Virus record (IMG/VR): IMGVR_UViG_2568526722_000004
Span: 1-26,789 of that record
Source of the DNA: a virus
Taxonomy: Duplodnaviria > Heunggongvirae > Uroviricota > Caudoviricetes
Strand: one strand, 5' to 3'
Length of the DNA stretch: 26,789 nucleotides
Positions within the stretch are counted from its first letter, which is position 1; every line of letters starts with the position of its first letter. This document shows positions 1-21,329 of this stretch, piece after piece. The notes below the pieces were generated by a model. The model did not search any database. It was not told the origin of the DNA and saw only the letters and a list, made by a program, of their open reading frames with translations. The translations under genes were made by a program, and so were the position numbers.

Positions 1-588
1 GCGGCATGACGAATAAATATCGTTATTCTCCCGCTCATGTTTAGCGCCACGAAACGCCACCGCGGGAATAACAATCTGCCGGTCAAACGGCTGATCGTCA
101 TAAACCCTGACGGTAATGGTCCCTGATGGCCACCGCTCCGGTGCACGGGAGTCCCGGGGGAAAGCTTTGCCCACTGTTTTAACGAGATCGCCTTCAATCT
201 GGTTCGCAGACAGTTTTCCCAGAACCCGACAGTTTTCATTTATCGTGACATTGTTGAGCGTCCCGGCGTTCGCATTCACACTGCCACTGATATCCGCATT
301 TTTCGCCGTCAGTCGCCCGTCCGGTGTAAGGGAAAATGCAGGAGGATTACCGCCGCTGGTAATGGTGGGAGCCGTCAGATATTTCAGGAACACGGCCCGA
401 ACGGCAGGATCATCCGCCAGCGGTTGTGATGCCGCCGGAACGGCACCACTGGCGAAAGATGAATAACGTTCCGGCTCAGGCTCCAGCAAGACACGCCCCT
501 GCATAAACAAGGGCATCAGCTCTGAACCTGGTCTGAACAATACGATCCCCATACGCGGGGCAATTTCAGGGGTCAGTAGTGCTCTCAC
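1..588 (-). CDS. Phage tail host-specificity (lambda J-like) protein, partial: N-terminally truncated remnant whose C-terminus lies beyond the left window edge
   Basis: Hand translation of the minus strand gives an open frame from an in-frame stop at 619-621 to position 1 (e.g. ...[97 protein letters not shown]...), which resembles the C-terminal receptor-binding region of lambda gpJ from memory. No ATG; a GTG at 588 follows GAGGTGA. Not in the ORF track because it lacks an ATG start. Confidence 0.5.
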
Positions 589-595
589 GGTCACC

Positions 596-1393
596 TCAAT
601 GAACGGTATCGAGCAGCTTTAACAGCTCAGGGAATCGGGATTCGAAGAAATGCGGCTGCGTCTCGCGCGGATTTGCGGGACTGGTGATGTTCTTGCCGAA
701 CATGCAGCCTTTCGCCGTCAGCGACCAGAATTTTTTGATGTTGTTAATCGCTGTACGGCTGTATCGTTCGCGCTGTTCGACGATCCCCAGCTTCGCCATC
801 TGGTGATATGCCTGATTAGCCGTAAGGCGGATACCATACTGTTTCAGCAGTGCACTCAGCGACAGTGTCGGGCGACTTGAGCCATCAGGCGCGTCAGCAG
901 GAGCATCAATGGCATAGCGCGGTGCCAGATTCGGTAAGCCAACAGCCTCCTGGAGTTTCTGACAGGCCCCAAGCACAGATGAGTTAGACAGGTTTAACTC
1001 CCGGCGCATAAAGTCCAGCAGAATCACGCCAGCCTGCATCTTGTCAGCAGCCTGCCCGGATAATTTTTCCGGTGCGCTGGTTACCATATCGAAAGTACGG
1101 ATCACCTTCAGATGGAATGACGGGCTGATCCACATTGCATAGGCATACACCAGTTCTTTGCAGACATACGTCCCCTGGTTATTTCCGCCACGACTAACGT
1201 TAACTGGCTCTATATTGACCGAGTTGCAAATCTGCAACTCGCTTATTAAACGTTCGGTTTGCTCATTGCGGAGCCAGAATGCAGGCTTATGCTTATCCTG
1301 AGAACCGGCAGCCCTGTGCAGATCGTTCAGGCTGTAACGCCCATAAGCATCACGACGAACTTCAATACCATCAATGACCATCAGATTATTCAT
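596..1393 (-). CDS. KilA-N domain phage protein (antirepressor-like)
   Basis: 265-aa ORF; N-terminus [30 protein letters not shown]... is typical of KilA-N DNA-binding domains; last gene of the minus-strand early operon. Confidence 0.6.
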
Positions 1394-1412
1394 ACTTCGT
1401 TTCTCCTCTTAA

Positions 1413-1775
1413 TCAGGCGGCTGCACCCGCCGTTTTCTCGTACTTACTGATAGTGATCTCGACCTTCCCTCCCGGGATAACCGGTCCCCACTCCACCAAC
1501 ATTCTTTTCACCTGACTGTCGTCTTCCCACACACCCGCGTGGGTCAGGGCGTCAAACAGCGCCTTGTTATAGTTGTCCAGATCGCGGATCCGGTTAGCCG
1601 TTCTGACGGTACTCATCCCCGCGCCAATCTGACGGGCAATGGTTTCAATTGATGGCCAGCACACACCTTCGTCATTACTGAAATCAGCCAGGCGGGCCAT
1701 AATTGCCACGCTGGATAATTTCATGCCTGACGCAGCGCAACCATCCCATACATAGCCGGTTAATTTAGTGCTCAT
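1413..1775 (-). CDS. Phage helix-turn-helix domain protein
   Basis: 120-aa ORF with GAGGT RBS 5 nt upstream of the ATG at 1775; winged-HTH-like segment (SVAIMARLADFSNDEGVCWPSIETIARQIGAGMSTVRTANRIRDLD). Confidence 0.5.
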   Translation of the reverse strand: MSTKLTGYVWDGCAASGMKLSSVAIMARLADFSNDEGVCWPSIETIARQIGAGMSTVRTANRIRDLDNYNKALFDALTHAGVWEDDSQVKRMLVEWGPVIPGGKVEITISKYEKTAGAAA

Positions 1776-1784
1776 GACCGACCT

Positions 1785-2123
1785 CTATTTCCCTGAATTT
1801 ACGACGAAACTGTTCGAGCGGGCTGAAGCACTCATGCTCATAGCCTTCACGGAGGTAGATAACCCGTTGTGTTTCCGGCTCCCAACGAATGACTCTGACG
1901 GGCACTCCGTAGTGATCTTTGAACCAGCGGTTAACTTGTCGCAAAGGACTGTCTCCTTCTGCCGGTTGAAATCACCCACAGCCCACTCTGCAAAGCTGTG
2001 GGTTACAATTTCCCTGTCACCTGGTACATTTACTGCATAGCAATACTCCACCTTCGCTTTTCCACCCGGTACAGGAAGCGCAATCAGTTGCGAGCGACGG
2101 TAGTGTGTTGTTAAACTGTTCAT
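1785..2123 (-). CDS. Hypothetical phage protein
   Basis: 112-aa ORF whose ATG overlaps the upstream gene's TGA (ATGA coupling at 2120-2123) and whose stop sits in the RBS of the next gene; operon context favours it over the antisense ORF 1768..2040. Confidence 0.45.
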
Positions 2124-2683
2124 GCGTTAGTTTCTCCACAGTCACGACACGCCACGGCGCCCGGAGCTGCACACTCGCGGGCGTCACTACTTTCTGAAAC
2201 GCAAAAGATTTTGTAGACCAGTGCTGCATGCTCCTGCAGCTTCGAAATTGAGAGGTACAGCTCATCGTTAATTGCTGTCTTCTCATGCGGTTCCACTACA
2301 CCGTCTTCAATTGCTGAACGAATCTGTTTTGAATAACTGCCGATCTGTTCAATGACTTCCAGCAGGCGTTGGTTGATATCGGCGTTGTCCACATCCTCGA
2401 CGTCAGGAAGAGACACAAAGACGCCATTTGCAGACTGCGCCACAGCATCAGCAATGAAGTGAGTGCCACCAGCACGCTGTAAAACCATTGCCCATCCCAG
2501 CGGGAAAATCTGATCGCCATCTGCACGAAGGCGGTTGAATAAAGCGTTTTCTGTTACATCGAGCCAGTCAGCCGCTTCAGCGTAACCACCCGGCAACGCC
2601 GCGATAGTTTTTCTGACAGCTTTCACGTACCACTCAGGCTGTTTTTCTATTTTCCAGTGATGCTTACCCACGGTTAGCCTCAT
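2120..2683 (-). CDS. Phage CII-like regulatory protein (YdaT-like)
   Basis: 187-aa ORF directly downstream of the Cro-like gene; position and composition resemble YdaT/CII-like proteins of Rac-type prophages. Confidence 0.5.
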
Positions 2684-2714
2684 CGTTCTGTGGTTAAAAA
2701 TTGAAAGTGTTCTG

Positions 2715-2915
2715 CTAATCTTTCGGATAGATATCCGGTCTTAAGTCAGATTTCGTAATTGCACCTGACGTGCATTGCTCAAGTTTTTTAGCCAGCACAA
2801 AACTGGCTTTTTTATAGCCATTGAAAACCAGCCGTAAGTAGCCAGGTGTTGAGCCAACTTTTCCGGCCAACTCGCCCTGCTGTTCTTTGGTTAAAGAGTC
2901 CCAATACGCTTTCAT
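2715..2915 (-). CDS. Cro/YdaS-like HTH transcriptional regulator
   Basis: 66-aa protein from the internal ATG at 2915 with GGAGGT RBS (the longer 167-aa track ORF has a non-protein-like N-terminal extension); HTH segment ...ELAGKVGSTPGYLRLVFNGYKKASFVLAKKLEQCTSGAITKSDLRPD; divergent from the CI-like gene. Confidence 0.6.
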   Translation of the reverse strand: MKAYWDSLTKEQQGELAGKVGSTPGYLRLVFNGYKKASFVLAKKLEQCTSGAITKSDLRPDIYPKD

Positions 2916-2918
2916 ACA

Positions 2919-2990
2919 ATATGTACCTCCGGTATACATATTACATGATTGAAATGAACCTTCAAGATACTTGTACCTTAACGGTACAAG
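2919..2990. promoter_or_regulatory. Divergent operator/promoter region between Cro-like and CI-like genes
   Basis: Two palindromes with TGTACC half-sites: AATATGTACCTCCGGTATACATATT (2919-2942) and CTTGTACCTTAACGGTACAAG (2970-2990); the same half-site recurs at the promoter after the CI-like gene. Confidence 0.5.
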
Positions 2991-3005
2991 GGTTTTAATT
3001 TCGTT

Positions 3006-3680
3006 ATGAAAACAATCCATGACATCCGGCGGTCTAACGCCAGAAAACTGAGAGATGGTGTTGGCGGGAATTCTTCCTTTGCCACTATGATTGATCGCGA
3101 GCCAACCCAGACCAGCAGGTTTATGGGAGATGGTGCTACTAAAAATATCGGTGACAGCATGGCACGACACATCGAAAAATGTTTCGACCTGCCTGTCGGA
3201 TGGCTCGATCAAGAACACCAGACAACGAACATCACAAAAAAACCTGATGTTTCAATCACTAATAAACAAATCACATTAGTCCCTGTCATATCATGGGTAC
3301 AGGCCGGAGCATGGAAAGAAGTTGGATATTCTGAGGTTGATTTGAGCACAGCAGAAACGTATCCCTGCCCTGTACCCTGTGGGGAAATGACTTATATCTT
3401 GCGGGTGATAGGTGATTCAATGATTGATGAGTACCGCCCGGGAGACATGATTTTTGTCGATCCTGAAGTACCTGCCTGCCACGGTGACGACGTTATTGCA
3501 TTGATGCACGATACAGGCGAAACCACCTTCAAAAGGTTGATAGAAGATGGGACACAGCGTTATCTCAAAGCGTTAAACCCAAACTGGCCTGAGCCTTACA
3601 TTAAGATCAACGGTAATTGCTCTATAATTGGTACAGTGATTTTCTCAGGAAAACCAAGAAGATACAAAATCAAAGCCTAA
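3006..3680 (+). CDS. CI-like phage repressor with LexA/S24 peptidase C-terminal domain
   Basis: 224-aa ORF; C-terminal ...YILRVIGDSMIDEYRPGDMIFVDPEV... has the GDSM serine motif of the S24 (LexA/CI) autopeptidase family; divergent from the Cro-like gene; followed by a terminator. Confidence 0.75.
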   Translation: MKTIHDIRRSNARKLRDGVGGNSSFATMIDREPTQTSRFMGDGATKNIGDSMARHIEKCFDLPVGWLDQEHQTTNITKKPDVSITNKQITLVPVISWVQAGAWKEVGYSEVDLSTAETYPCPVPCGEMTYILRVIGDSMIDEYRPGDMIFVDPEVPACHGDDVIALMHDTGETTFKRLIEDGTQRYLKALNPNWPEPYIKINGNCSIIGTVIFSGKPRRYKIKA

Positions 3681-3692
3681 TCAATGTTTATG

Positions 3693-3716
3693 AACCTGCT
3701 TCGGCAGGTTTTTTTA
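3693..3716 (+). terminator. Rho-independent terminator after the CI-like gene
   Basis: AACCTGC-TTCG-GCAGGTT hairpin followed by a run of T (3709-3715). Confidence 0.7.
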
Positions 3717-3719
3717 TAC

Positions 3720-3752
3720 TTGACAATGTACCTTTGAGATACATAATGTACC
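3720..3752 (+). promoter_or_regulatory. Sigma70-like promoter (pL-like) with flanking TGTACC operator half-sites
   Basis: TTGACA (3720-3725), 17-bp spacer, CATAAT (3742-3747); ATGTACC at 3726-3732 and 3746-3752 overlap the promoter elements. Confidence 0.5.
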
Positions 3753-3914
3753 CAAGCGAAACAACGAACAGGCAGGACGCCCACGAAGTAGCCGCCTGGA
3801 GCATATGAAGTCCAGGATGATTCGTTAGCAACAAAAAAGCGCCCTACAGGACGCTTAGCTCTTTAACAATCTGGTCCCCATCAACAAGTAACTGATAACT
3901 TGAGGAGATGTGAA

Positions 3915-4121
3915 ATGCACAAAACAGAACCCAAAATCGTCGCGCCTGGCTACACAGATGAGGAAATTTATGAGTGGATGACAAAGAAGCTGGCAGCTAT
4001 AAACCAGCTTCGTGAAGTGCTGTCTTATCGACAGGAAACAATAGACTCCTTAAAAAAACTGGATCAGGAAATCACGGTTTTATCACAGGATGTTACTTTA
4101 GATATTGTGCAGACAAATTAG
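3915..4121 (+). CDS. Hypothetical small protein
   Basis: 68-aa ORF from the ATG at 3915, preceded by GAGGAG; the track ORF uses an upstream TTG at 3900. Confidence 0.35.
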   Translation: MHKTEPKIVAPGYTDEEIYEWMTKKLAAINQLREVLSYRQETIDSLKKLDQEITVLSQDVTLDIVQTN

Positions 4122-4527
4122 GATCCCATTCATTTTCGTCAAAATCATCAAAGTGATGAATTTGTGATCTCCAGTCTCGATAATCTAAAAATTTCTGGGC
4201 GGTTACGCTTATTTTATCAAGTGTGAGTTCATCCTGAATTGAAAGAAGAAGTTCATCAAATTTCATCTCATTAATCTGTTTTGGCATCCAGTGATGCTTC
4301 ATCAGAATAAGGTGAACCAGAGCCTTTTTCCCATTCAACTGATTATAGGGAGTGCCGAATTTCTTCCGGTGCTCATGTAAGACAAGGTCCAAAAGAGTAA
4401 GTAATGTTGCCCTTGATTCAACTTTGCTTATTTCGACTGATGACACTACCCCACTGATTTCAATGCCCCGATACTTTCCAACATTTTCACAGTGGGATTT
4501 GTACAGCGTATAGATATTACCGGACAT
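4093..4527 (-). CDS. Hypothetical protein (AT-rich moron, opposite strand to the surrounding operon)
   Basis: 144-aa ORF with AAGGA RBS; markedly AT-rich compared with its flanks; convergent with the upstream small gene; preceded by two direct repeats. Confidence 0.5.
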   Translation of the reverse strand: MSGNIYTLYKSHCENVGKYRGIEISGVVSSVEISKVESRATLLTLLDLVLHEHRKKFGTPYNQLNGKKALVHLILMKHHWMPKQINEMKFDELLLSIQDELTLDKISVTAQKFLDYRDWRSQIHHFDDFDENEWDPNLSAQYLK

Positions 4528-4542
4528 TTCTTTTCCTTTTGC

Positions 4543-4590
4543 GTTGTTGGGGATAACCAGATTAACCGAATCCTTGTTGTTGGGGAATAA
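4543..4590. repeat. Two direct repeats GTTGTTGGGGA(A)TAAC upstream of the moron gene
   Basis: GTTGTTGGGGATAAC at 4543-4557 and GTTGTTGGGGAATAAC at 4575-4590, 16-48 bp upstream of the start codon at 4527. Confidence 0.5.
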
Positions 4591-4995
4591 CTAGGTCCAC
4601 CTCGCCTGATGTGGCTAAAAGCAGGCACATAACAGCTAAGTATTTTCAACCAGAGAGAATCCTTAGCGTTGTGGTGAATGCGGCTCAGCGCACGCGGGTT
4701 AAGGTTGAGGCTGACAGTCGACCTTCTGTGGATACCCACCCGCCTGGTGTGCAACCTTCGCCAGGCACCGGGAGGCACCCGGCACCACAACTTTATGCTG
4801 TGTGTAGTCTTGGCGGTACCAGCTTGTACCCTTGCTTCCGGCTGGTACCGTCCTTTTTACAAAACAGAGAAGAGCATCACCGGACGACGGGCTCATAACC
4901 CAATCCATCCGGGCGGCAGTCACCGCAGGTGTTCTTCTCTGTTTTGTGGAGAAACTAACCGACCTTGCAGGGTCGATATGATGAGGAGCAGCAAA

Positions 4996-5358
4996 ATGGC
5001 TAGCGAACGCAGTACTGATGTGCAGGCATTTATCGGGGAGCTGGACGGCGGCGTATTTGAAACCAAAATCGGCGCAGTTCTCAGTGAAGTCGCTTCCGGT
5101 GTGATGAACACGAAAACCAAAGGTAAGGTCTCGCTCAACCTGGAAATCGAACCGTTTGATGAGAACCGAGTGAAAATCAAACACAAACTCTCATATGTTC
5201 GCCCGACTAACCGCGGGAAAATTTCCGAAGAAGACACCACCGAAACGCCGATGTATGTCAATCGCGGTGGTCGCCTGACTATTCTGCAGGAAGACCAGGG
5301 ACAGTTACTGACTCTTGCCGGTGAACCTGACGGAAAACTCCGCGCAGCAGGTCGTTAA
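4996..5358 (+). CDS. Hypothetical prophage protein (yfdP-like position)
   Basis: 120-aa ORF from the ATG at 4996 with AGGAG RBS; the longer track ORF 4678..5358 has an implausible GC-rich, non-protein-like N-terminal part. Confidence 0.5.
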   Translation: MASERSTDVQAFIGELDGGVFETKIGAVLSEVASGVMNTKTKGKVSLNLEIEPFDENRVKIKHKLSYVRPTNRGKISEEDTTETPMYVNRGGRLTILQEDQGQLLTLAGEPDGKLRAAGR

Positions 5359-5423
5359 TATCGTTTTTAATTAACTGATTATTTATCTCATCACTGAATA
5401 TCTTTATATAGTGAGGACTTATT

Positions 5424-6248
5424 ATGTCTCAGAACTTAGACGCAACCGCAATTAATCAAATCCATGCCCTTATTTCTGCTCAGGGTGTTAATGAAATTAT
5501 CAGTAAGATTGGTGCCGATGCTGTGGCATTGCCTGAGAATTTCCGCATTCATGATCTGGAAAAATTTAATTTAAATCGCTTCCGTTTCCGTGGTGCGCTT
5601 TCCACTGCCAGCATCGATGACTTTACCCGTTATTCTAAAGATCTTGCAGATGAAGGCACCCGCTGCTTTATCGATGCTGATAATATGCGTGCCGTCAGTG
5701 TGCTTAACCTGGGTACTATTGATGAACCAGGTCACGCAGATAACACCGCCACACTCAAACTGAAAAAGACAGCACCGTTCTCTGCTCTGTTGTCTGTTAA
5801 CGGCGAGCGTAACTCCCAGAAGTCACTAGCAGAATGGATTGAAGACTGGGCCGACTATCTTGTGGGCTTTGATGCTAATGGTGACGCTATTCAGGCAACA
5901 AAAGCGGCTGCGGCTGTCCGTAAAATCACGATTGAAGCAAACCAGACCGCTGATTTTGAAGATAATGACTTCAGCGGCAAACGCTCCCTGATGGAGTCTG
6001 TCGAAGCGAAGACCAAAGACATTATGCCAGTGGCATTTGAATTTAAATGCGTTCCGTTTGAAGGTCTGAAAGAACGCCCGTTTAAATTACGCCTCAGTAT
6101 TATCACTGGCGATCGTCCTGTACTGGTTCTGCGCATTATTCAGCTGGAGGCGGTGCAGGAAGAAATGGCTAACGAATTTCGTGATCTGCTTGTTGAGAAA
6201 TTCAAGGACAGCAAAGTAGAAACCTTTATTGGTACTTTCACCGCCTGA
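5424..6248 (+). CDS. yfdQ: Prophage protein, YfdQ-like (274 aa)
   Basis: 274-aa ORF; size and gene order (274/178/120/101 aa) match the yfdQ-yfdR-yfdS-yfdT block of E. coli CPS-53/KplE1 as I recall it; symbol assigned from memory, not verified. Confidence 0.5.
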
Positions 6249-6375
6249 TTTCATTACTGCAAATGCCCCTGCGGGGGCATTTATGGAAACGTAATTTACT
6301 CAATAATCGCCGGATGGTGAGGGATTCTTTTTACCAGAATTCAGCGCGGTGCAGCGCATATACGTGGAGAACAAA

Positions 6376-6912
6376 ATGTCATTTATTAAAACTTTTTCCG
6401 GGAAGCATTTTTATTATGACAGGATAAATAAAGACGACATCGATATTAACGATATCGCGGTTTCCCTTTCAAATATCTGTCGCTTTGCCGGTCATCTTTC
6501 GCACTTCTACAGCGTCGCCCAACATGCGGTTCTTTGCAGCCAGCTGGTGCCGCAGGAATTTGCTTTTGAAGCGTTAATGCATGATGCAACAGAAGCGTAT
6601 TGCCAGGACATTCCCGCACCACTGAAACGCCTTCTTCCTGACTATAAACAAATGGAAGAAAAAATAGACGCCGTAATCCGTGAGAAATACGGGTTACCCC
6701 CAGTTATGAGTACGCCCGTGAAATATGCCGATCTCATCATGCTGGCAACCGAACGCCGCGATCTCGGACTTGATGATGGCTCTTTCTGGCCTGTATTGGA
6801 AGGTATCCCGGCAACAGAGATGTTCAAAGTGATTCCACTGGCTCCAGGCCATGCCTACGGGATGTTTATGGAACGTTTTAACGAGTTATCGGAGTTACGC
6901 AAATGCGCATGA
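6376..6912 (+). CDS. yfdR: HD-domain protein, YfdR-like 5'-deoxynucleotidase
   Basis: 178-aa protein from the ATG at 6376 with GGAGAA RBS; has H..HD-type metal-binding motifs (CRFAGH, MHDATEAY) typical of HD-domain phosphohydrolases. Confidence 0.55.
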   Translation: MSFIKTFSGKHFYYDRINKDDIDINDIAVSLSNICRFAGHLSHFYSVAQHAVLCSQLVPQEFAFEALMHDATEAYCQDIPAPLKRLLPDYKQMEEKIDAVIREKYGLPPVMSTPVKYADLIMLATERRDLGLDDGSFWPVLEGIPATEMFKVIPLAPGHAYGMFMERFNELSELRKCA

Positions 6913-7265
6913 ATGTTTTCGAAATGGAAGGGTTTCTTCGCGGGAAATGTGTACCGCGAGATCTGAAAGTGAACGAAACAAATGCTGAGTACCTGGTACG
7001 TAAATTCGATGCGCTTGAAGCTAAATGTGCAGCACAGGAAAACAAAGTAATACCAGTGTCAACTGAACTGCCACCAGCAAATGAAAGTGTTTTGTTATTC
7101 GATGCTAACGGAGAAGGCTGGCTAATTGGCTGGCGTTCTCTCTGGTACACCTGGGGACAAAAAGAAACCGGAGAATGGCAGTGGACATTTCAGGTCGGGG
7201 ACCTTGAAAACGTCAATATCACTCACTGGGCAGTAATGCCAAAAGCACCGGAGGCTGGAGCATAA
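6903..7265 (+). CDS. yfdS: Prophage protein, YfdS-like
   Basis: 120-aa ORF overlapping the yfdR-like stop; size and order match CPS-53 yfdS from memory. Confidence 0.45.
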   Translation: MRMNVFEMEGFLRGKCVPRDLKVNETNAEYLVRKFDALEAKCAAQENKVIPVSTELPPANESVLLFDANGEGWLIGWRSLWYTWGQKETGEWQWTFQVGDLENVNITHWAVMPKAPEAGA

Positions 7266-7570
7266 TGACCACTTTTACCGACAAAGAACTGATTAAAGAA
7301 ATTAAAGAGCGTATCAGCAGCCTTGACGTGCGAGACGATATTGAGCGCCGTGCTTATGAAATCGCACTCCTATCTCTGGAAGTAGAACCAGATGAACGCG
7401 AAGCTTATGAATTATTCATGGAAAAGCGTTTCGGTGACTTAGTAGATCGTCGGAGAGCAAAAAACGGCGATAACGAATACATGGCATGGGATATGACTCT
7501 CGGTTGGATCGTCTGGCAGCAACGAGCTGGTATCCATTTTTCAACAATGTCACAGCAAGAGGTGAAATAA
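7265..7570 (+). CDS. yfdT: Prophage protein, YfdT-like
   Basis: 101-aa ORF with stop/start overlap on both sides; size and order match CPS-53 yfdT from memory. Confidence 0.45.
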   Translation: MTTFTDKELIKEIKERISSLDVRDDIERRAYEIALLSLEVEPDEREAYELFMEKRFGDLVDRRRAKNGDNEYMAWDMTLGWIVWQQRAGIHFSTMSQQEVK

Positions 7571-7920
7571 TGGAGCCATACAGCCTCACACTCGATGAGG
7601 CCTGTCATTTTCTCAAGATATCCAGACCGACTGCCATTAACTGGATACGCACAGGGCGTCTTCAGGCAACACGCAAAGATCCCACTAAGAATAAATCTCC
7701 TTACCTCACAACACGACAAGCCTGCATTGCGGCTCTTCAGTCTCCGCTGCATACTGTCCAGGTGAGCGCGGGTGATGGCATAACAGAGGAAAGAAAATGT
7801 CACTCTTCCGCAGAGGTGAAATATGGTACGCCAGTTTCACATTGCCGAACGGTAAAAGATTTAAACAGTCTCTTGGAACAAAGGACAAAAGGCAGGCGAC
7901 AGAACTCCATGACAAGCTAA
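7570..7920 (+). CDS. Excisionase-like HTH protein (Xis/AlpA-type)
   Basis: ATG at 7570 with AGGTGA RBS; N-terminal [31 protein letters not shown] is an excisionase-type HTH; sits directly upstream of the integrase; the frame stays open to 7920, overlapping int by 124 nt, so the 3' end is uncertain. Confidence 0.5.
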
Positions 7921-8960
7921 AGGCTGAAGCATGGCGGGTCAGCAAACTTGGTGAAATACCTGATATAACGTTCGAGGAAGCGTGTGTCAGGTGGCTTGAA
8001 GAGAAAGCACATAAAAAATCACTGGACGATGACAAAAGCCGGATCGGATTCTGGCTTCAACATTTCGCAGGAATGCAACTAAGAGACATTACTGAATCAA
8101 AAATTTATTCAGCAATGCAGAAAATGACGAACCGGCGTCATGAGGAAAACTGGAAACTCAGGGCAGAAGCATGCAGAAAAAAAGGGAAACCTGTTCCAGA
8201 ATACACGCCAAAACCAGCGTCCGTTGCAACGAAGGCTACGCATCTTTCATTTATAAAGGCCCTACTAAGAGCCGCAGAGCGTGAATGGAAAATGCTGGAT
8301 AAGGCACCAATTATTAAAGTGCCCCAACCAAAGAATAAACGGATCCGCTGGCTGGAGCCCCATGAAGCACAAAGGCTGATTGATGAATGTCCGGAGCCAT
8401 TAAAGTCTGTTGTTGAATTTGCACTGGCAACAGGCCTAAGACGCTCGAACATCATCAACCTTGAATGGCAACAAATAGATATGCAGCGCCGGGTGGCATG
8501 GATAAACCCGGAAGAGAGTAAATCAAACCGCGCAATTGGCGTTGCGCTGAATGATACTGCATGTCGCGTATTGAAAAAACAAATCGGGAATCATCACCGT
8601 TGGGTATTTGTGTACAAGGAAAGCTGTACCAAACCAGACGGAACGAAAGCGCCAACAGTCAGGAAGATGCGGTATGACGCAAACACAGCCTGGAAAGCGG
8701 CGCTGAGACGGACTGGTATTGATGATTTCAGATTTCACGACTTGAGACACACCTGGGCAAGTTGGCTGGTTCAAGCCGGAGTCCCGTTGTCAGTGTTACA
8801 GGAAATGGGAGGCTGGGAGTCTATCGAAATGGTTCGTCGATATGCTCACCTTGCACCTAATCACCTTACCGAACACGCACGGCAAATAGACTCGATCCTA
8901 AACCCATCGGTCCCAAATTTGTCCCAGTCAAAAAATAAGGAAGGTACTAATGATGTGTAA
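7797..8960 (+). CDS. Tyrosine recombinase, lambdoid phage integrase
   Basis: 387-aa ORF; N-terminus [14 protein letters not shown]... (arm-binding type); C-terminal catalytic region ...[40 protein letters not shown] with the conserved HxxR and Tyr motif; ends 13 nt before a copy of the thrW 3' end. Confidence 0.85.
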
Positions 8961-8972
8961 CTTATTGATTTA

Positions 8973-8990
8973 AATGGTGCGATAATAGGA
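8973..8990. repeat. att core repeat (copy of the thrW 3' end): attR of element A and attL of element B
   Basis: AATGGTGCGATAATAGGA matches 25344-25362 AATGGTGCCGATAATAGGA (18/19, one C missing), same orientation. Confidence 0.7.
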
Positions 8991-9049
8991 ACAAATCAAA
9001 CCACATAACCAATTGATTTCTATTATATTTTTATGTTTTAGTTTTCAAC

Positions 9050-9070
9050 ATACCCCCAAAAGTACCCCCA
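9050..9070. repeat. 21-bp repeat ATACCCCCAAAAGTACCCCCA (candidate integrase arm-type site), copy 1
   Basis: Exact 21-bp direct repeat of 25211-25231; contains an internal TACCCCCA duplication; lies about 60 bp inside the left att core. Confidence 0.6.
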
Positions 9071-9307
9071 TAAGCGCCTGTATGATTAGACTCCGGGAAA
9101 AACATAAAAGCTATTCATTTAAGAGCTTTATGTCTTCATTCACTTTGTCAATTAAGAAAGATATCCAAACGAATAAAATTTCAATTTATTGAAGGCCATG
9201 TCATGTTTTCTATTTCTACAGTTTAAAAGTTTTATCATAACCTTCTGTTAGAACAGAATTAATTAGCAAAAAAACCCCAAGGGCATGAGGTTTTTTATTT
9301 TCCATTG

Positions 9308-10288
9308 TCATGCTAAAGCTCGAGCTACATTTTCTTTGATCGCAATAGCACAAGGAGTTTTGAACTTTTCTTTGCAACAGTGTAATAGCGTATTAATATT
9401 CAAATCAGTTTCAAGAATATTTTTTAGCTCACTCTTTCTTTCCGAGATTAAGGTTGGTTTATCTTTGCATTGTTTGACTATTAAGGCAGTTTCATTAATA
9501 TTCAATTGCTCTATCAATGATTTTATGACAGGCATGACAACTCTATCAGCTAAAAAATGACCATTGATATATTGATAGGCGTTATCTTCTCTCAATCCTT
9601 TATCATATAACTGCTCATAGAATTTATCAGCATCGTATTCATCTTGAATAAGGTTATCAAGTTTTTCTTCAATAACCGCTTTAGATTGCTGCATACTTTC
9701 AAATACAGCATTTTTGATAACAAATTGGTTCGTTAATCGTGGCACAGAAGGAGCAATCGCTTCATGGAAAACTGAGTCATCAAGTCTAACTTGATGCTGT
9801 TTAAGCAATAAAAATTTCTTCAGCACGGGGTAGATCAACCGTGAATACTCTGTAATGTATGCTGTAAAATCGAATTTAATTTCAGTAGCGATCTTTATTT
9901 GAGAAAGACAATACTCAAGGACTTCATGGTGTAACTCGATGCTCTCTTTTGAATATACAAATGTTTGAAAAATAAACTTGTTACTGCAAATTATCTCTGA
10001 GTCTGTACTGTTTTTAGGGCATAAATAATCAAAATCACTATCCATTGCAAATATGGCATATCGATTTGCTCGGCTCATGAATTTTTTTAATACTGGTTTC
10101 CCTTTTGTTCCTTTATTGGTAGGGTTACAAATATCAAAACGTATATCATTATCTTTATCGTTTAATAAGCCTTCCCAGAAAGAAATGTCTTTTAGACCTT
10201 CAACAAAGACAAAGCCATTGTGTCCAGCCATAATACAATATACCTGAAGATATTCTTCGCTAAAATTAATATCCTCAAACTCAGTCAT
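9308..10288 (-). CDS. ariB: AriB-like DUF4435/Toprim protein (PARIS defense system effector)
   Basis: 326-aa ORF overlapping the upstream ATPase gene by 8 nt; N-terminal Toprim-like features (MAGHNGFVFVEGLKD..., acidic AIFAMDSDFDY); low GC; the pairing with an ABC-type ATPase is the PARIS (AriA/AriB) architecture. Confidence 0.6.
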   Translation of the reverse strand: MTEFEDINFSEEYLQVYCIMAGHNGFVFVEGLKDISFWEGLLNDKDNDIRFDICNPTNKGTKGKPVLKKFMSRANRYAIFAMDSDFDYLCPKNSTDSEIICSNKFIFQTFVYSKESIELHHEVLEYCLSQIKIATEIKFDFTAYITEYSRLIYPVLKKFLLLKQHQVRLDDSVFHEAIAPSVPRLTNQFVIKNAVFESMQQSKAVIEEKLDNLIQDEYDADKFYEQLYDKGLREDNAYQYINGHFLADRVVMPVIKSLIEQLNINETALIVKQCKDKPTLISERKSELKNILETDLNINTLLHCCKEKFKTPCAIAIKENVARALA

Positions 10289-11276
10289 GAGAAGATTCCT
10301 TTGAAATATTTTTTATATCTACGAAAGAATCCATCCAGCCTTTCATTAATATTGCAGGACTATGAGTAACAATAATTAACTGACAATTATCGTTAATTGA
10401 TTTGATGGTGCTTATTAATCTTTCTTGCCACGTAAGGTGCAAGGATATTTCTGGCTCATCCATCAACAAGACAGATTCATCCAATGAAGTATTAGCTGTT
10501 TTAATCAGAATATATAACAACTGACGTTCACCTGATGAAAGAAGATTATACCTAATATCTTCACCAGAATCACTCATCTTAATAGAAATGTTACCATTAC
10601 TAAAAGAAACAACTTTGTTACATTCAGCAAATAAATTATTTATAGCTGATTCCAACTTATCCTTTATGAGAATACCTTTAGACTCACTTACTTTGAAAGT
10701 ATTCTTTAACCTTTCTAATTCACCAGCAATTTCCATATCAAGAATTGTGGTGCGCTCACCATCACTTTTTTTGAATTCATAGATGGAATTGGCACTCATA
10801 TTGATAGTTGATATTAACTCAACATTTATTCGCTTAGTGTTTTTAATATTATCACTTACGCTAACAGTTCCCATCCCGAACTCTTTAATTTCAGTGTCTT
10901 CTTTTTTCGATTCAAGCAACTCAATAAGTTCATTTAACTCCTTTATTTCCTTACCCTTTGATTTACCTTTAATACTGTTTTTCTTAAGGTTATTAAGTAG
11001 GTTTAGAAGCTGGACAGAGTCAATTTCGCGAAAATTAACTTTGTGAGTAATTGTGCCTCCATTGGCCAATGTTATTTGAGCCAACGCAGCATTACTTAAA
11101 CTTTCATTTAATTCTTGTTTTAAGAGGGCAAAAACACTTTGAATTATCGTGCTCTTACCTGAGCCATTTTTACCCACTAAAACATTCACATCTTTTAAAC
11201 TCCAATCAATGTCCTTCCGTTTAAAAAGACCTTTGATTGCTATATTTTTGATTATCGTCGCCACTCTCGTATCCAT
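10281..11276 (-). CDS. ariA: AriA-like ABC/AAA_15-21 ATPase (PARIS defense system sensor)
   Basis: 331-aa ORF; Walker A GKNGSGKST, signature-like LSSGERQLL, Walker B LLMDEPE, H-loop IIVTHS; low GC. Confidence 0.65.
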   Translation of the reverse strand: MDTRVATIIKNIAIKGLFKRKDIDWSLKDVNVLVGKNGSGKSTIIQSVFALLKQELNESLSNAALAQITLANGGTITHKVNFREIDSVQLLNLLNNLKKNSIKGKSKGKEIKELNELIELLESKKEDTEIKEFGMGTVSVSDNIKNTKRINVELISTINMSANSIYEFKKSDGERTTILDMEIAGELERLKNTFKVSESKGILIKDKLESAINNLFAECNKVVSFSNGNISIKMSDSGEDIRYNLLSSGERQLLYILIKTANTSLDESVLLMDEPEISLHLTWQERLISTIKSINDNCQLIIVTHSPAILMKGWMDSFVDIKNISKESSHD

Positions 11277-11653
11277 TATTATGAAAGTTGAAATGATTAT
11301 AACATGCTTAGCGTGCGCTTGGCATCTACCCTACAGTTGTTAGCAATAAACTTTATAACACAATGTAACACATTGAATTTAAACACTTAATATCAAATCC
11401 AACGCTAAACATCACGGAACCTGAAAGACTCTTGGCATTCTAGTTAGTACCTACTACGAAACGTTTTGAAAGGTTAAAGTGGACAGTCCGCATCAACTGT
11501 AACTTAAAATGCTCAGTAACGATGCATCTGCATGATTTGCAAAGTATGACAGAACTTCATTTGATGCTTTCACAAATGCGTGCCTGAAGTTTTCTAAAGC
11601 GGCGCGGTTAACTCTTTCTGGCTCAAAACCTTAATAAATCTGTATATCGCGGG

Positions 11654-11880
11654 TTGACACACTTGACACTTTTTCGGGAAAAACCTTAACAAAACTTAAC
11701 CTCCCCTGGCATTTCTAAGCATGGCAACTTGACACTTTTCGCGATTTTTTCGGCTTTTTGACGTGGTAAATCTGGCGAAAGGCCAGTAATGGCGCGGCTT
11801 ACAGCGAGGTTGACACTTTTTCGCGTTCAGAGTGTAAAGTGTCAACCTGGCAAGCTGCTCAACTTGACACTTTTTGATGT
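11654..11880. repeat. Array of TTGACAC(T)TTTT direct repeats plus one inverted copy
   Basis: GTTGACACACTTGACACTTTTTCGGG (~11654-11680), AACTTGACACTTTTCGCG (~11727), GGTTGACACTTTTTCGCG (~11808), inverted AGTGTAAAGTGTCAACC (~11831), AACTTGACACTTTTTGATG (~11862); immediately 3' of the 175-aa HTH gene. Confidence 0.55.
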
Positions 11881-12407
11881 CATTGATGGTCTGATTTTTC
11901 CCATTCAGCTAGGGCGTTTAGCCCGGCTTCACTCCATGATTCCAGTTCATCGGCATAATCACCTGCAACATAGCAGAGTTCGCAACGCAGCATACGAATT
12001 GCCAGCCTGGCATTACCTCGCAAATTGTATTTTTCAAAGTAATGCTGCCCTTCATCATCCTCAAGGCAGATAGCACCATCATCAAGAAAGTGCACTTCCC
12101 AGCCTAATTCCCCGGCTGCATCCAGCACACGCTGCTGTATGCCCTCGTCCGTTGCTGGCGCAGGAATTTTACCGCCTCTGGCCTTAACTGCTTTCCAGAA
12201 CTCGCCCCACGTCATTTCCAGCGTTCTTTCTGGCCACATTTCAGAAATGGTGTCTTTCCCCTGTGCTGGTGGGCTGTTCCGCTGCTCTGTCGCTTCCACA
12301 TCAATTTTTTTGCCAGACATGATCACTTCGCCTTTCTCGATCCAGTCGTAAACTGTCTGGCGGCTTACGCCTTTGTATTTGGCGTATTCGGCTTTACTCA
12401 TCAACAT
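11880..12407 (-). CDS. HTH-domain protein with terminase-small-subunit (Nu1)-like N-terminus; possible packaging or regulatory role
   Basis: 175-aa protein from the ATG at 12407 (GAGGTGA RBS 5 nt upstream); N-terminal MLMSKAEYAKYKGVSRQTVYDWIEKGEV resembles the winged-HTH of small terminase/Nu1-type proteins; the track's longer 202-aa form is an unlikely N-terminal extension. Confidence 0.5.
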   Translation of the reverse strand: MLMSKAEYAKYKGVSRQTVYDWIEKGEVIMSGKKIDVEATEQRNSPPAQGKDTISEMWPERTLEMTWGEFWKAVKARGGKIPAPATDEGIQQRVLDAAGELGWEVHFLDDGAICLEDDEGQHYFEKYNLRGNARLAIRMLRCELCYVAGDYADELESWSEAGLNALAEWEKSDHQ

Positions 12408-12506
12408 GTAGCTCACCTCATGCATATACGATAAAAAATAATTTAATGCGAAAAGGGAATGCGTTGTGGGTATGGAGGAAAGGGGCAATAACCGCCCCTT
12501 ACTGAT

Positions 12507-15175: not shown

Positions 15176-15684
15176 GCGCCTATTGTCTCCTTTGCTGCCC
15201 GGCGCTGGCGTTTGCGCTTCTCATTCAGCGCCACCAGCCGCGTTTCTGCGTCCTGTTGTTCCTGTGGTGTCACCTCGCCGCACGGCTGGCCTTTCAGGTC
15301 GTAGCGTACCCCACCAGCCATTAAGGCGCGGTAATAGTGCGGACACTGCGCATAAGATGCCAGCGTCGCACGCAATGCCCCTGGCCCGAATGCCAGCCCC
15401 CTGACGGCGAGATCCTGCATCAGGTCGTCGAATATCCCCACCTTAAGCGGCTTCGGTGCTTCCCGGCTGAATAAGTCAGGCCACAACTCAGTGAGGCGGT
15501 TAACGCGCCTGCGGTTTTTGCGCTGGCGTTTGGTCATATGCCGCCACGGTGTCGCCCCTGTGGGCTTTTGCTGCGCTTTCTGGTTACCGGGCATCACTTT
15601 ATGCGCCGATGTGGTTTTATGATCTTACCCAGCAATAGTGGACACGCGGCTAAGTGAGTAAACTCTCAGTCAGAGGTGACTCAC

Positions 15685-15984
15685 ATGACAAAAACAGTAT
15701 CAACCAGTAAAAAACCCCGTAAACAGCATTCGCCTGAATTTCGCAGTGAAGCCCTGAAGCTTGCTGAACGCATCGGTGTTACTGCCGCAGCCCGTGAACT
15801 CAGCCTGTATGAATCACAACTCTACAACTGGCGCAGTAAACAGCAAAATCAGCAGACGTCTTCTGAACGTGAACTGGAGATGTCTACCGAGATTGCACGT
15901 CTCAAACGCCAGCTGGCAGAACGGGATGAAGAGCTGGCTATCCTCCAAAAGGCCGCGACATACTTCGCGAAGCGCCTGAAATGA
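15685..15984 (+). CDS. insE: IS3 transposase OrfA (InsE)
   Basis: 99-aa product [32 protein letters not shown]... with AGGTGA RBS; matches IS3 InsE from memory. Confidence 0.9.
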
Positions 15985-16847
15985 AGTATGTCTTTATTGA
16001 AAAACATCAGGCTGAGTTCAGCATCAAAGCAATGTGCCGCGTGCTCCGGGTGGCCCGCAGCGGCTGGTATACGTGGTGTCAGCGGCGGACAAGGATAAGC
16101 ACGCGTCAGCAGTTCCGCCAACACTGCGACAGCGTTGTCCTCGCGGCTTTTACCCGGTCAAAACAGCGTTACGGTGCCCCACGCCTGACGGATGAACTGC
16201 GTGCTCAGGGTTACCCCTTTAACGTAAAAACCGTGGCGGCAAGCCTGCGCCGTCAGGGACTGAGGGCAAAGGCCTCCCGGAAGTTCAGCCCGGTCAGCTA
16301 CCGCGCACACGGCCTGCCTGTGTCAGAAAATCTGTTGGAGCAGGATTTTTACGCCAGTGGCCCGAACCAGAAGTGGGCAGGAGACATCACGTACTTACGT
16401 ACAGATGAAGGCTGGCTGTATCTGGCAGTGGTCATTGACCTGTGGTCACGTGCCGTTATTGGCTGGTCAATGTCGCCACGCATGACGGCGCAACTGGCCT
16501 GCGATGCCCTGCAGATGGCGCTGTGGCGGCGTAAGAGGCCCCGGAACGTTATCGTTCACACGGACCGTGGAGGCCAGTACTGTTCAGCAGATTATCAGGC
16601 GCAACTGAAGCGGCATAATCTGCGTGGAAGTATGAGCGCAAAAGGTTGCTGCTACGATAATGCCTGCGTGGAAAGCTTCTTTCATTCGCTGAAAGTGGAA
16701 TGTATCCATGGAGAACACTTTATCAGCCGGGAAATAATGCGGGCAACGGTGTTTAATTATATCGAATGTGATTACAATCGGTGGCGGCGGCACAGTTGGT
16801 GTGGCGGCCTCAGTCCGGAACAATTTGAAAACAAGAACCTCGCTTAG
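15981..16847 (+). CDS. insF: IS3 transposase OrfB (InsF), DDE catalytic domain; expressed as OrfAB by -1 frameshift
   Basis: 288-aa ORF overlapping the orfA stop (ATGA); DDE-type integrase core (…HTDRGGQY…, …[11 protein letters not shown]…). Confidence 0.9.
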
Positions 16848-16982
16848 GCCTGTGTCCATATTACGTGGGTAGGATCATTATCCTGCTCCTGCGCCGCCTG
16901 CGTCGTTTTCTGCGGCGTGCCGTAAATGCCTTTCGGTTTTCTGTTAATGGTCAGCTTAGTCATGCTTTGCCCCATCGTTACA

Positions 16983-17316
16983 ACTGTCTACCAACTGTCT
17001 ACCGATATAATTGTTTGATTTATTTAATGTTATTAATACATAACAAAAAAACAATCTGCAAACTGTCTACCAACTCTCTACAGTATTAATACATTGATAA
17101 TTAATGACTTTTACTAAATGGTAGACAGTGTAGATAGTTAAAAGAAAAATTTTAAAAATGAACCCATAACTATCTATTTTTAGATACCCCCGTGGTTTAG
17201 AAATATAAAATAAACTGTCCACCTCTCTACCACATTAAAAATACCTATATAATTCAAAACATTAATTAGTAGATGGTTGGTAGAGGGTTAAGTGTATCTG
17301 TCTACCAACCGTCTAC
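16983..17316. repeat. Iteron-like repeat array in AT-rich DNA downstream of the primase gene (candidate replication origin)
   Basis: CTGTCTACCAACTGTCTACC (16983-17002), CTGTCTACCAACTCTCTAC (17063-17081), inverted GGTAGACAGTGTAGATAG (~17120), CTGTCCACCTCTCTACCAC (~17215), inverted GGTTGGTAGAGGG (~17276), CTGTCTACCAACCGTCTAC (17298-17316). Confidence 0.6.
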
Positions 17317-17344: not shown

Positions 17345-19150
17345 TCATGTTCTGTCGTTAATGCCTGCCGTTGCTGGTAACCATCCATCAGCATCTTTAT
17401 CTAACAGAACATTTGTGATCGTTCGCCCTTTATCTGGACCTTTAGTGCATTTAGCCCGCTTGTACTCCTTTCCGTACTCAGCCATTGCCCCTGGCATATC
17501 TGTACCAAAGCGTGTCAGTGATACCGGTTTTCCCAGACCATGCGCAGACATATAAGCCAAATAAGCATGATACAGATATCGCCTCGGACTAAATGGCACT
17601 ATTTCTGCATTACCTACTATCATTCCCTCACATTTAACCAACGACATCAGATAACCGCAGAAGTCCACCAGCGAATCACCTTCACGCTTTATCAACAGTG
17701 CTTCTTCTGATTTTTGCTGCTCATAAAGTAGTCTTTTCGCTTCGTCCTGGTCGGCAAATCGTGTAAGCAAATGGCGAATCACTACTGCCAGTTCCCCTTC
17801 TATCTTTTTCGCCAGCATCGGATCGCGTTCGTTCTCTGGTACAACCTCAGAGAAATTAAATATTACTCGTCGACGCGAGATCCCCCCACTACGGTCGCTG
17901 AATGACATGGCATAATTGTTTACTGCCAGCACTACCGCAGGAACGCGCGTGGAATAGGGCGCTTTGTGTTTCGGATCGATAGCCACCTTGTCACCGCCTG
18001 TAATGGCCTTAATCCCAGCACCATCACCTGCGTAGCGGGTCATGTCAGGCATGATAATCAGAGAATATCCCACCACTAACGCTCGTTCCCTCGCGTCTTC
18101 CAGCGCCTTCATGCTCGCCGATACTGTATTGGCCTTACCCGCCAGCATGGTACAAATCTCCGCCATCACACTTTTACCGCTTCCGCCCGGCCCCGTTACC
18201 TCAAGGAATAACTGCCAGTCGTACCGGTTCGCCAGTACCATGAATAATGCCGCCAGTACGCGATCCGCTTTACGAGCATTATCCGCCACCGAACGACGCA
18301 ACCACTTCCAGAAATTCGGCGCATGTGTTGCCAGCGTTTCCCCCTCTTCTGGCGGGCTGAACGGTAATTCACTGGCATTTAACAACCAGTCATTTTTGTT
18401 GTGTTCCCGAAAATTTCCTGTCCTGATATCAAAAACACCGTTACTGAACCCAATAAGATTTCTGTCCGCTCCCCCCATAACAGGTAGACTCAATTTCATT
18501 GTCTCTACGGCAAATTTAATGGCGTTTTGCGAATAACTAATTTCGGCATCAATAAAAATCTTCGCCATAGACCGCTGGAGTTCCTTATCAGATACAGGCT
18601 CCCAAACAATTCCGTTGTAATGGTGAACTACATCAGAATCATCATTTATCGCCAGTGCTCCTCCATAATGTTCAAGTAACACTTCCCCTCTCTGGCTGGC
18701 TCCCATCTGATTTAATGCAGGCTTGGGTAGACCACTATTTTTTGTAGCTAATTTCATCACTGAAACTTCCCCGTGCTCAGCCTGTTCGCGGATCCGTTGC
18801 AGGTAGTCGCGCCAGTTCTCCGGTTCCTGGTCGGTGATACCTTTGTATAATTTCGCCTCCTGTACGCCAGCCAGCGCCAGCTTTTCAGCGATAGTATTGA
18901 TCTGGATTGGCTCTATCTCCCCCGCGATATAGACACGCGCAAAACGGCGTTTCTCGTCAATAATGCGGATATTCGCCAGGTCTGCCAGTTGCTTTGGCCC
19001 CAGGTAAACAGGAGGCACGTTATCGCCGTGTTTTCGTCCTTCACTTTCAATCCAGTGTTGAGCATGGGCGTAAGCATCCATCCCGGCAAAAATGATTACC
19101 TCAGTGAATTTATCCTTCGGCTGATATTTTAGACTCGGTGCGTTTTTCAC
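17345..19150 (-). CDS. Replication primase/helicase-like protein (P4 alpha / D5-type SF3 NTPase family)
   Basis: 601-aa ORF; Walker A in ...LEVTGPGGSGKSVMAE...; last gene of a tightly coupled operon; followed by the iteron array. Confidence 0.7.
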   Translation of the reverse strand: MKNAPSLKYQPKDKFTEVIIFAGMDAYAHAQHWIESEGRKHGDNVPPVYLGPKQLADLANIRIIDEKRRFARVYIAGEIEPIQINTIAEKLALAGVQEAKLYKGITDQEPENWRDYLQRIREQAEHGEVSVMKLATKNSGLPKPALNQMGASQRGEVLLEHYGGALAINDDSDVVHHYNGIVWEPVSDKELQRSMAKIFIDAEISYSQNAIKFAVETMKLSLPVMGGADRNLIGFSNGVFDIRTGNFREHNKNDWLLNASELPFSPPEEGETLATHAPNFWKWLRRSVADNARKADRVLAALFMVLANRYDWQLFLEVTGPGGSGKSVMAEICTMLAGKANTVSASMKALEDARERALVVGYSLIIMPDMTRYAGDGAGIKAITGGDKVAIDPKHKAPYSTRVPAVVLAVNNYAMSFSDRSGGISRRRVIFNFSEVVPENERDPMLAKKIEGELAVVIRHLLTRFADQDEAKRLLYEQQKSEEALLIKREGDSLVDFCGYLMSLVKCEGMIVGNAEIVPFSPRRYLYHAYLAYMSAHGLGKPVSLTRFGTDMPGAMAEYGKEYKRAKCTKGPDKGRTITNVLLDKDADGWLPATAGINDRT

Positions 19151-20226: not shown

Positions 20227-20443
20227 GGTGCACCTCCTGCACATCAGCCATGATAATTTTTCCGGCCTTATCCAGTGCCTGATCGGCTTTTAGCTGCACA
20301 AATGCTAAATAATGGGAGATGCATTCTGATTCTCTGGCTGCGTGTTTATGCGCCACACCAGCGATAGCAGAAATCTCAATAAGTGAATCCATCAGCGTTT
20401 TGATAGCGTCTACCGCTGCATCAGGCCATGTTGCATTACACAT
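20219..20443 (-). CDS. Hypothetical protein (replication operon)
   Basis: 74-aa ORF; start overlaps the upstream stop by 8 nt. Confidence 0.4.
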   Translation of the reverse strand: MCNATWPDAAVDAIKTLMDSLIEISAIAGVAHKHAARESECISHYLAFVQLKADQALDKAGKIIMADVQEVHHA

Positions 20444-20639
20444 GTTCCACCTCCTGGCGAATACGGGCGGCGAATACCATCACGCAGCCATCAGGAGATT
20501 GCTGGCGTGCTTCCTGTTCGCTGGTGGCCTCGATGTGAATTACGCGCGGTTGTGCCGTGCTCAGGGCGATAAAACGCCAGATGTATTTATTCAGGTTGTG
20601 CGAGTCCCGCCCTTGCGGGTGTGTGGTATGATTTCTCAT
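20436..20639 (-). CDS. Hypothetical protein, first gene of the replication operon
   Basis: 67-aa product from the ATG at 20639 with GAGGT RBS, just downstream of the operator region; it is the plausible C-terminal segment of the 435-aa track ORF. Confidence 0.4.
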   Translation of the reverse strand: MRNHTTHPQGRDSHNLNKYIWRFIALSTAQPRVIHIEATSEQEARQQSPDGCVMVFAARIRQEVEHV

Positions 20640-20735
20640 AGCTACCTCGATACTCTTGCTATCGTTGGTGGTTAGACGCCCTGCATGTGTGCCACCACTG
20701 CGGGGCGTTGTCGTTTCTGCACCTTGCATCAACAA

Positions 20736-20789
20736 GGTGTTGAACACCAATTTAAGCCCAGGTGTTAAACACGTCAAGTGTTGAACACT
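20736..20789. promoter_or_regulatory. Three 13-bp palindromic operators (GTGTT-N-AACAC) in a divergent promoter region
   Basis: GGTGTTGAACACC (20736-20748, perfect), GGTGTTAAACACG (20761-20773), AGTGTTGAACACT (20777-20789, perfect); between the RHH gene (20839, +) and the replication operon (20639, -). Confidence 0.6.
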
Positions 20790-20838
20790 TATTTTTTTTC
20801 CTGCATACTGCATTTGTTTTTTGTAAGGGGTACACAAC

Positions 20839-21018: not shown

Positions 21019-21329
21019 CCATCACCAGCGCCGTGGTGTGAGGAACTACGGTGCATCGTTTTACAGGGCTGCGCCATGACCAACAAAAAATCAACCAATA
21101 CACCATCACCGGCACGGAAAAGACAGCGCAGAAAGATAGCGTACGAGCATGAGTCAAACAGATTCGCGCCCTGTGCGTTTATCCTTGAGAAATTCCTTAA
21201 AGAGTACAGGCGCACAAAAATGGGGTCGCATACCTGGAAAACATCGCGGCATGGCAATGTTAAAGAGCAGGAATAGCCCACCAGCAAGCCAGCATATTCA
21301 CCATAATGACCCTCAGTTAAACATAGAGT

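Follow-up and report, generated by a model that had tools for sequence, protein, structure and literature searches.

Two genes in a Caudoviricetes sequence record very probably form a PARIS-family anti-phage operon of the abortive-infection type, ariA followed by ariB, carried as accessory cargo of a satellite-like island at the E. coli tRNA gene thrW. The window analysed here is the whole stretch of IMG/VR record IMGVR_UViG_2568526722_000004, with a length of 26,789 nucleotides (nt). An original prediction made from the sequence alone had described the pair as an ABC-type ATPase coupled to a DUF4435/Toprim-like protein in the arrangement of PARIS. Both open reading frames (ORFs) lie at exactly the positions predicted, on the minus strand, with all quoted motifs present, and the predicted 8-nt overlap is found between them. 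The features of the operon are as follows.

10281..11276, minus strand: ariA, compact ABC/Rad50-like ATPase, 331 amino acids (aa) from the ATG at 11276
9308..10288, minus strand: ariB, predicted DUF4435/Toprim-type nuclease effector, 326 aa
10281..10288, minus strand: 8-nt overlap ATGACTGA of the ariB start codon and the ariA stop codon, read from the sequence
11296..11325, minus strand: best sigma-70-like promoter candidate (ATGCCA, 18-nt spacer, TG-extended TATAAT), a consensus match
9269..9296, minus strand: terminator-like hairpin from RNA folding, 11-bp stem AAAAAACCUCA/UGGGGUUUUUU, 12 nt past the ariB stop

Domain content and operon structure

The published PARIS detection rule combines AAA_15 at >=32 bits or AAA_21 at >=27 bits with an adjacent DUF4435 at >=27 bits (PMC9122126). 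The pair falls within this rule: AriA scores 74.5 bits for AAA_21 (E=2.1e-20) and 71.1 bits for AAA_15 (E=1.7e-19), with SMC_N at 44.8, AriB scores 62.6 bits for DUF4435, and the ATPase gene and the DUF4435 gene following it are adjacent and co-oriented. Both domains also exceed their Pfam thresholds. The best PADLOC models are those of AriA (PDLC04164, 2.6e-43, 146.4 bits; best PtuA model 88.8 bits) and AriB (PDLC04165, 3.6e-22, 77 bits). Profile evidence from both sources upholds the PARIS-type identity. No NCBIfam model reaches its cutoff for either protein, and it is for this reason that RefSeq gives them generic names ("AAA family ATPase", "DUF4435 domain-containing protein").

The ATPase AriA is intact and of the ABC/Rad50 type. 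Its motifs read VGKNGSGKST (Walker A, K41), LSSGE (246-250), VLLMDEPE (D273/E274) and VTHS (H305). The ATG start at 11276 is uncertain by four codons, since the RefSeq copy (WP_000190961.1, 327 aa) begins at a GTG at 11264 and the homologues start at that position too. Among PDB sequences, the best matches are AriA chains of the characterized B185 system (8v45, 8ux9, 8v46; E ~4e-17), in an alignment covering the Walker A region and the C-terminal lobe only. The AlphaFold model (predicted local distance difference test, pLDDT, 83) places four helices between the lobes. Foldseek ranks AriA chains at positions 1-15 (E 7.6e-15 to 2.9e-11), followed by PtuA, retron ATPases and Rad50. For residue comparisons, the B185 clade was represented by a proxy, the PARIS locus L004 on a viral contig, whose AriA C-terminus is 76% identical to B185; mappings onto B185 are indicative only because of the low-identity alignment and the proxy numbering. 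With this limit, the proxy residues aligned with K41 and E274 stand for B185 K39 and E393, both needed for defence.

Judged by its sequence, AriB is an intact DUF4435/Toprim-type protein with a full set of predicted metal-binding acidic residues. DUF4435 is the sole family match at E<=1 (residues 26-265, E=5.9e-17, against a cutoff of 27 bits), and the membership in a different family that would have contradicted the original prediction was not found. The motifs read VFVEGLKD and AMDSDFDY (D83/D85/D87). In a weak alignment with the L004 AriB (E 4e-4), E30, D34, D85, D87 and E115 correspond to B185 E26, D30, D88, E90 and E122, the metal-binding Toprim set of that protein (PMC11464382). An 82-sequence profile of the AriB clade aligns better with an annotated PARIS AriB from a P2 hotspot (probability 83.5%, E 8e-6). 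The only strong structural match of the predicted AriB model is solved AriB, at ~9% identity in the structural alignment. The closest solved structures are B185 AriA, by sequence and fold, and AriB, by fold.

The two genes are translationally coupled. An AGGAA Shine-Dalgarno-like motif lies 7 nt 5' of the ariB ATG, and the ariA/ariB junctions of relatives fall mostly between -23 and +26 nt, several being -8 as here. The promoter candidate is the top score of the scan (10/12), and the number of sites in the region is not above shuffle expectation. The hairpin past ariB folds at -11.7 kcal/mol (z = -2.06), which gives it moderate support; a consensus terminator scan did not call it.

Conservation across phyla

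The pair is co-inherited across phyla and under purifying selection. Searches with AriA recover thousands of relatives of ~320-350 aa. Direct searches with AriB recover few close relatives, and an AriB profile recovers 702 representatives of 50%-identity clusters (432 at E<=1e-10), each a stand-alone protein of ~310-360 aa. No relatives came out when GTDB genome contigs were scanned with AriB patterns, and the AriA alignment was used instead. With one genome taken per species, a short AriA of 272-376 aa is encoded at 79 loci, distributed over Gamma-, Beta- and Alphaproteobacteria, Bacteroidales and Saprospiraceae, and an AriB-profile match lies directly downstream in 77 of them. AriA residues K41, S247, G249, E250, D273, E274 and H305 are invariant in all 79 relatives. 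For AriB, E30, D34, D83 and D85 are invariant (76/76), E115 is found in 75/76, and the Toprim set (E30, D34, D85, D87, E115) is kept in 71-76 of the 76 relatives. Mean identity of the relatives to the proteins of the window is 39% for AriA and 26% for AriB, which diverges faster. Compared with a pair from Proteus mirabilis at 76-77% identity, AriA has a ratio of nonsynonymous to synonymous substitution rates (dN/dS) of 0.09 and AriB one of 0.06; both values are rough because dS is near saturation.

Close homologues of the pair are found at the end of a lambdoid prophage beside an icd fragment in Proteus, in a P2-like Citrobacter prophage between gpS and gpV, in a phage-like region of Acinetobacter, and on a plasmid-like contig of E. 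coli. Such locations in prophages and a plasmid-like contig point to the behaviour of mobile defence cargo. Bacteroidales metagenome-assembled genomes (L032-L090, about 5001-6900) encode an even smaller AriA of ~272-283 aa, followed by an AriB homologue of 330-354 aa, and this AriA leaves scant space for any coiled-coil insertion. In Shewanella xiamenensis (L009, 6001-8150), an AriA homologue is followed by ~1.2 kb without a called gene or an ORF >=60 aa, and AriB may be decayed or missing there.

Comparison with characterized PARIS systems

The pair resembles B185 PARIS-2 (PDB 8ux9, 8v45-8v49) in being a two-gene operon of ariA then ariB on a mobile element. AriA shares the Walker A, signature, Walker B and H-loop motifs as well as the C-terminal lobe (E 4e-17), and AriB shares the DUF4435/Toprim assignment and the order of acidic motifs. 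The differences lie in the length of AriA (331 aa here, 464 aa in B185, a difference of ~133 aa), in an AriB that is ~9% identical by structural alignment and invisible to phmmer, and in the carrier, which is a thrW island in which no P4 hijacking genes were found rather than a P4 hotspot. PARIS-1 of E. coli O42 (Rousset et al. 2022), a validated distant homologue, likewise combines AAA_15/AAA_21 with DUF4435, but sits in a P4-like hotspot, unlike the thrW island cassette. Its AriA is long (~490 aa), as its C-terminal-lobe AAA_15 match lies at residues 389-462, whereas the corresponding match here ends near 310. As to the detection models, the B185-clade AriB is recognized by an older one derived from DUF4435, PDLC02983, rather than by PDLC04165, and PDLC04165 also picks up a 27%-identical AriB on the plasmid-like E. 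coli contig, which Pfam DUF4435 misses.

Several observations weigh against an assignment of the pair to PARIS. Both experimentally validated systems (B185 and O42) have a long AriA of ~464 and ~490 aa, and ~141 aligned residues of the L004 proxy are absent here. The largest gap, of ~75 aa, corresponds to about B185 150-229 and, in this low-identity alignment with proxy numbering, takes in R168/R172 and R212/R213. AriB has no match among PDB sequences by phmmer or with a 15-sequence profile, the 82-sequence profile aligns only weakly with the L004 AriB (E 4e-4, probability 33%), and the AriB model has low confidence across its N-terminal 100 residues. The promoter and terminator calls are consensus-level only. 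A literature search, including 2025-26, found no experimental work on the short-AriA clade. Two further searches gave little: aligning the 15-sequence profile with the B185-clade AriB by hhalign produced a spurious match only, and literature searches on RefSeq protein accessions and PARIS subtype names returned nothing useful.

In B185, R168/R172 are radial-pore arginines and R212/R213 contact the phage protein Ocr (PMC11464382, PMC10802264). From the alignment, AriA appears to be without the segment bearing these Ocr-contacting and radial-pore arginines. Other trigger-contact arginines of B185 AriA (R244, R345/R346) are not conserved here, in a region where the alignment is unreliable and numbered by the proxy. 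The central-pore region of B185 (R116/R119) aligns with a Lys-rich, low-confidence loop at about residues 96-113 (KKNSIKGKSKGKEIKE, about 98-113), which is Lys-rich but variable in relatives. As a guess, these residues could form a trigger-contact surface.

Alternative explanations

PARIS belongs to a wider set of defence systems that pair an AAA_15/21 ABC ATPase with a nuclease, including AbiL (AbiLi/AbiLii), RloAB, OLD/Gabija and Septu PtuAB; the nucleases of AbiL, RloAB and OLD are likewise of Toprim type (PMC11464382, PMC13064643). The pair could represent another two-gene system of ATPase and Toprim protein, similar to AbiL/RloAB or to a split OLD/Gabija, with an effector cutting DNA and not tRNA. 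We consider this improbable. The partner here is DUF4435 and not RloB, Toprim_OLD or HNH, and the pair shows neither a fusion nor an adjoining helicase (GajB/UvrD) or HNH partner. At E<=1, AriB matches none of RloB, Toprim_OLD and DUF4276, and AriB is the unique strong structural match of the second protein. In PADLOC, the AriA-specific model reaches 146 bits and the best PtuA model 89 bits. Individual candidates were rejected on the same grounds: Septu PtuAB and retron-PtuA for the DUF4435 partner, the lower PtuA scores and the lack of an adjoining reverse transcriptase or HNH ORF; AbiL/RloAB for the lack of a RloB (PF13707) match at E<=1 in the partner; and OLD/Gabija for the two separate genes without Toprim_OLD or an adjoining helicase.

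Instead of sensing phages, the pair might mainly stabilize the island as an addiction module in which AriB would be the toxin and AriA the antitoxin. B185 PARIS has been called a toxin-antitoxin system of type II (PMC10802264), ariAB lies at the edge of the island, which is mobile, and homologues lie at the edges of other mobile elements. In B185, however, the loss of either gene is non-toxic and defence requires both (PMC9122126). The slot holding ariAB carries other defence-type cargo in related islands, and the intact ATPase, conserved everywhere, fits a regulated sensor. An addiction module appears slightly less probable still than a different ATPase-Toprim system. A transporter ATPase next to an unrelated gene, or a decaying remnant, would be consistent with a weak ABC_tran match (24.5 bits) and with many NCBIfam matches of ABC transporters to the signature/Walker B region. 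Yet the ABC_tran score is below the cutoff of 25, and every NCBIfam match is far under its cutoff. The adjoining permease gene that would have spoken against the original prediction is lacking, with no membrane or permease gene beside the pair. Both ORFs are intact, >=99.9% identical in 19 of 20 carriers (one has a partial copy), and under purifying selection. A reading as ABC transporter or pseudogene is effectively excluded. The PARIS-family operon is the favoured explanation.

Proposed mechanism and implications

For B185 alone it is known that an AriA6:AriB3 complex forms, that AriB is released in response to a trigger and ATP, that tRNA is cleaved and that defence results (PMC11464382, PMC10802264, PMC12409363). 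Complex formation, trigger, target and defence of the pair described here we infer by homology to that system. An AriA oligomer would hold AriB inactive, and the binding of a phage protein to AriA would, together with ATP, release AriB. Free AriB would then dimerize and cut host tRNA, and tRNA cleavage would stop translation and phage production. As AriA seems to be without its Ocr-binding part, Ocr is not predicted as the trigger. Neither Ocr triggering nor tRNA-Lys cleavage can simply be carried over, given how far the compact-AriA clade is from the characterized systems.

The compact-AriA clade (272-376 aa, Proteobacteria and Bacteroidota) might even constitute a mechanistic variant of PARIS without the coiled-coil/insertion scaffold, with a different assembly and trigger class, a suggestion that we make tentatively and rate at somewhat below even chances. 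If so, the coiled-coil interface of the B185 hexamer and the Ocr-binding scaffold would be absent, and AriA could assemble for example as head-to-head dimers. Trigger sensing would perhaps proceed via the Lys-rich loop, and the diverged AriB may cut different RNAs. A naturally minimal AriA could reveal which sensor parts are essential for the holding and release of AriB, and how trigger specificity is encoded. Compact AriA with a very divergent AriB is a reasonable, if not urgent, target for structure-function work. The conceptual gain is small, as PARIS is well described and PADLOC or DefenseFinder would pick up the locus; novelty is modest since PADLOC models already catch the pair. The assignment does provide a function for two generically annotated genes in the O104:H4 outbreak lineage and strain 55989, and marks a variable defence slot in the thrW satellite-like island family.

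A variable cargo slot

ariAB occupies a slot of the island in which cargo is swapped in and out.

8993..11650, no strand: variable cargo module with ariAB as its only content, GC content ~0.32 against ~0.46 in the flanks

Of 5426 complete E. coli genomes, 20 carry the cassette, in each case on the chromosome; O104:H4 outbreak isolates and 55989 are among them, and 19 of the copies are >=99.9% identical and one is partial. Blastn with the cassette found nothing beyond these carriers and two weak partial matches, and the phage collection contained no near match. The adjoining island backbone is far more widespread, occurring in 168 E. coli genomes (111 full-length), and the similarity to related islands stops sharply at about 11650-11652. 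Loci of related islands with other cassettes (L092 1298-4396; L011 7123-8730; L093 3119-4726; L094 4070-4880) illustrate the turnover. One alternative cassette encodes a DNA methyltransferase, DUF262 and a MAE_28990-type HEPN nuclease. Strain 2017-02-2CC has two hypothetical genes of 259 and 275 aa in the slot, for which PADLOC gave no convincing match. In a third case, the island lies elsewhere in the chromosome, near smrA, and has two small hypotheticals in the slot.

Between the stop of the ORF encoding a 202-aa helix-turn-helix (HTH), small-terminase (TerS)-like protein and the cargo slot, five copies of AAAGTGTCAA (four minus, one plus) lie at 11663-11873, where 0.09 are expected by chance. 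The array is the last conserved backbone feature before ~11650 and could be bound by packaging or regulatory proteins.

The thrW island and its neighbours

The attachment (att) repeat and the principal genes and motifs of the island, together with the integrase gene of a second element, are located as follows.

25346-25421, minus strand: tRNA-Thr(CGU) (thrW), with proA beyond
8974..8992, no strand: att repeat, a copy of the thrW 3' end (8968-8995 compared with 25340-25365)
23965-25179, minus strand: P4-type integrase
23853-23920, minus strand: Rfam int-alpA RNA motif directly downstream of the integrase, 45.5 bits against a gathering score of 35.8
21736-22536: AntA-domain gene
17345-19150, minus strand: D5-type primase-helicase
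11880-12488, minus strand: 202-aa HTH protein with a weak TerS-like match
7797-8960, plus strand: second integrase gene

The island is 16 kb long and also contains a ProQ/FinO-like gene and several hypotheticals. proA was identified from where the neighbouring ORF lies, from the length of that ORF (417 aa) and from the annotation of a related strain. The att repeat matches the thrW 3' end as AATGGTGC-GATAATAGGA, with one base missing. ariAB is the last item inside the island, with the repeat ~320 bp from the ariB stop. The placement of the pair just inside an attR end therefore holds as to distance; the repeat itself is better described as the junction of tandem elements, because the second element's integrase gene ends at 8960 and abuts it. 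Two elements are in tandem at thrW, an exact arrangement found in no complete E. coli genome of the collection. The second element (1-8960) further encodes an HTH_17 excisionase-like ORF, DUF2303/YfdQ, an S24 repressor (3006-3680), CII (CP76) and KilA-N.

The gene set of P4-like satellites includes integrase, Psu, Delta, Sid, Ash/epsilon, alpha primase and AlpA (PMC10085698). The island is satellite-like in its P4-type integrase, int-alpA RNA, D5-type primase and TerS-like HTH protein, and no Psu/Sid/Delta-type match was found in the ORFs scanned by Pfam or PHROGs, a scan that did not cover small ORFs exhaustively; P4-likeness is for this reason not shown.

Four CTGTCTACCAACTGTCTAC-type iterons lie at 16984-17316, just downstream of the D5-type primase-helicase gene, and this region is likely the replication origin of the island. 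An identical 21-mer ATACCCCCAAAAGTACCCCCA is found at 9050-9070 and 25211-25231, just inside both island ends, with a degenerate third copy at 24944-24969, and these copies are candidate arm-binding sites of the integrase. An insertion element of the IS3 family at ~15600-16870 (orfA 15676-15984; orfB 15981-16847, with rve domains) has apparently shortened the ProQ/FinO-like gene at its 5' end, and this gene encodes 141 aa here and 176 aa in O104:H4. The IS3 element is absent from most other island copies, and another strain has an IS3 elsewhere in the island. A 435-aa ORF at 20436-21743 (minus strand) resembles a repressor in its C-terminus only (phrog_6196, residues 347-435) and shares 8 nt with the AntA-domain gene upstream of it. 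The islands of O104:H4 and 2017-02-2CC have no annotated gene of this size between the AntA and Icd-like genes. Between the AntA-domain gene and a 267-aa ORF beside the integrase, a tandem 33-nt direct repeat (88% identical) spans 22894-22959.

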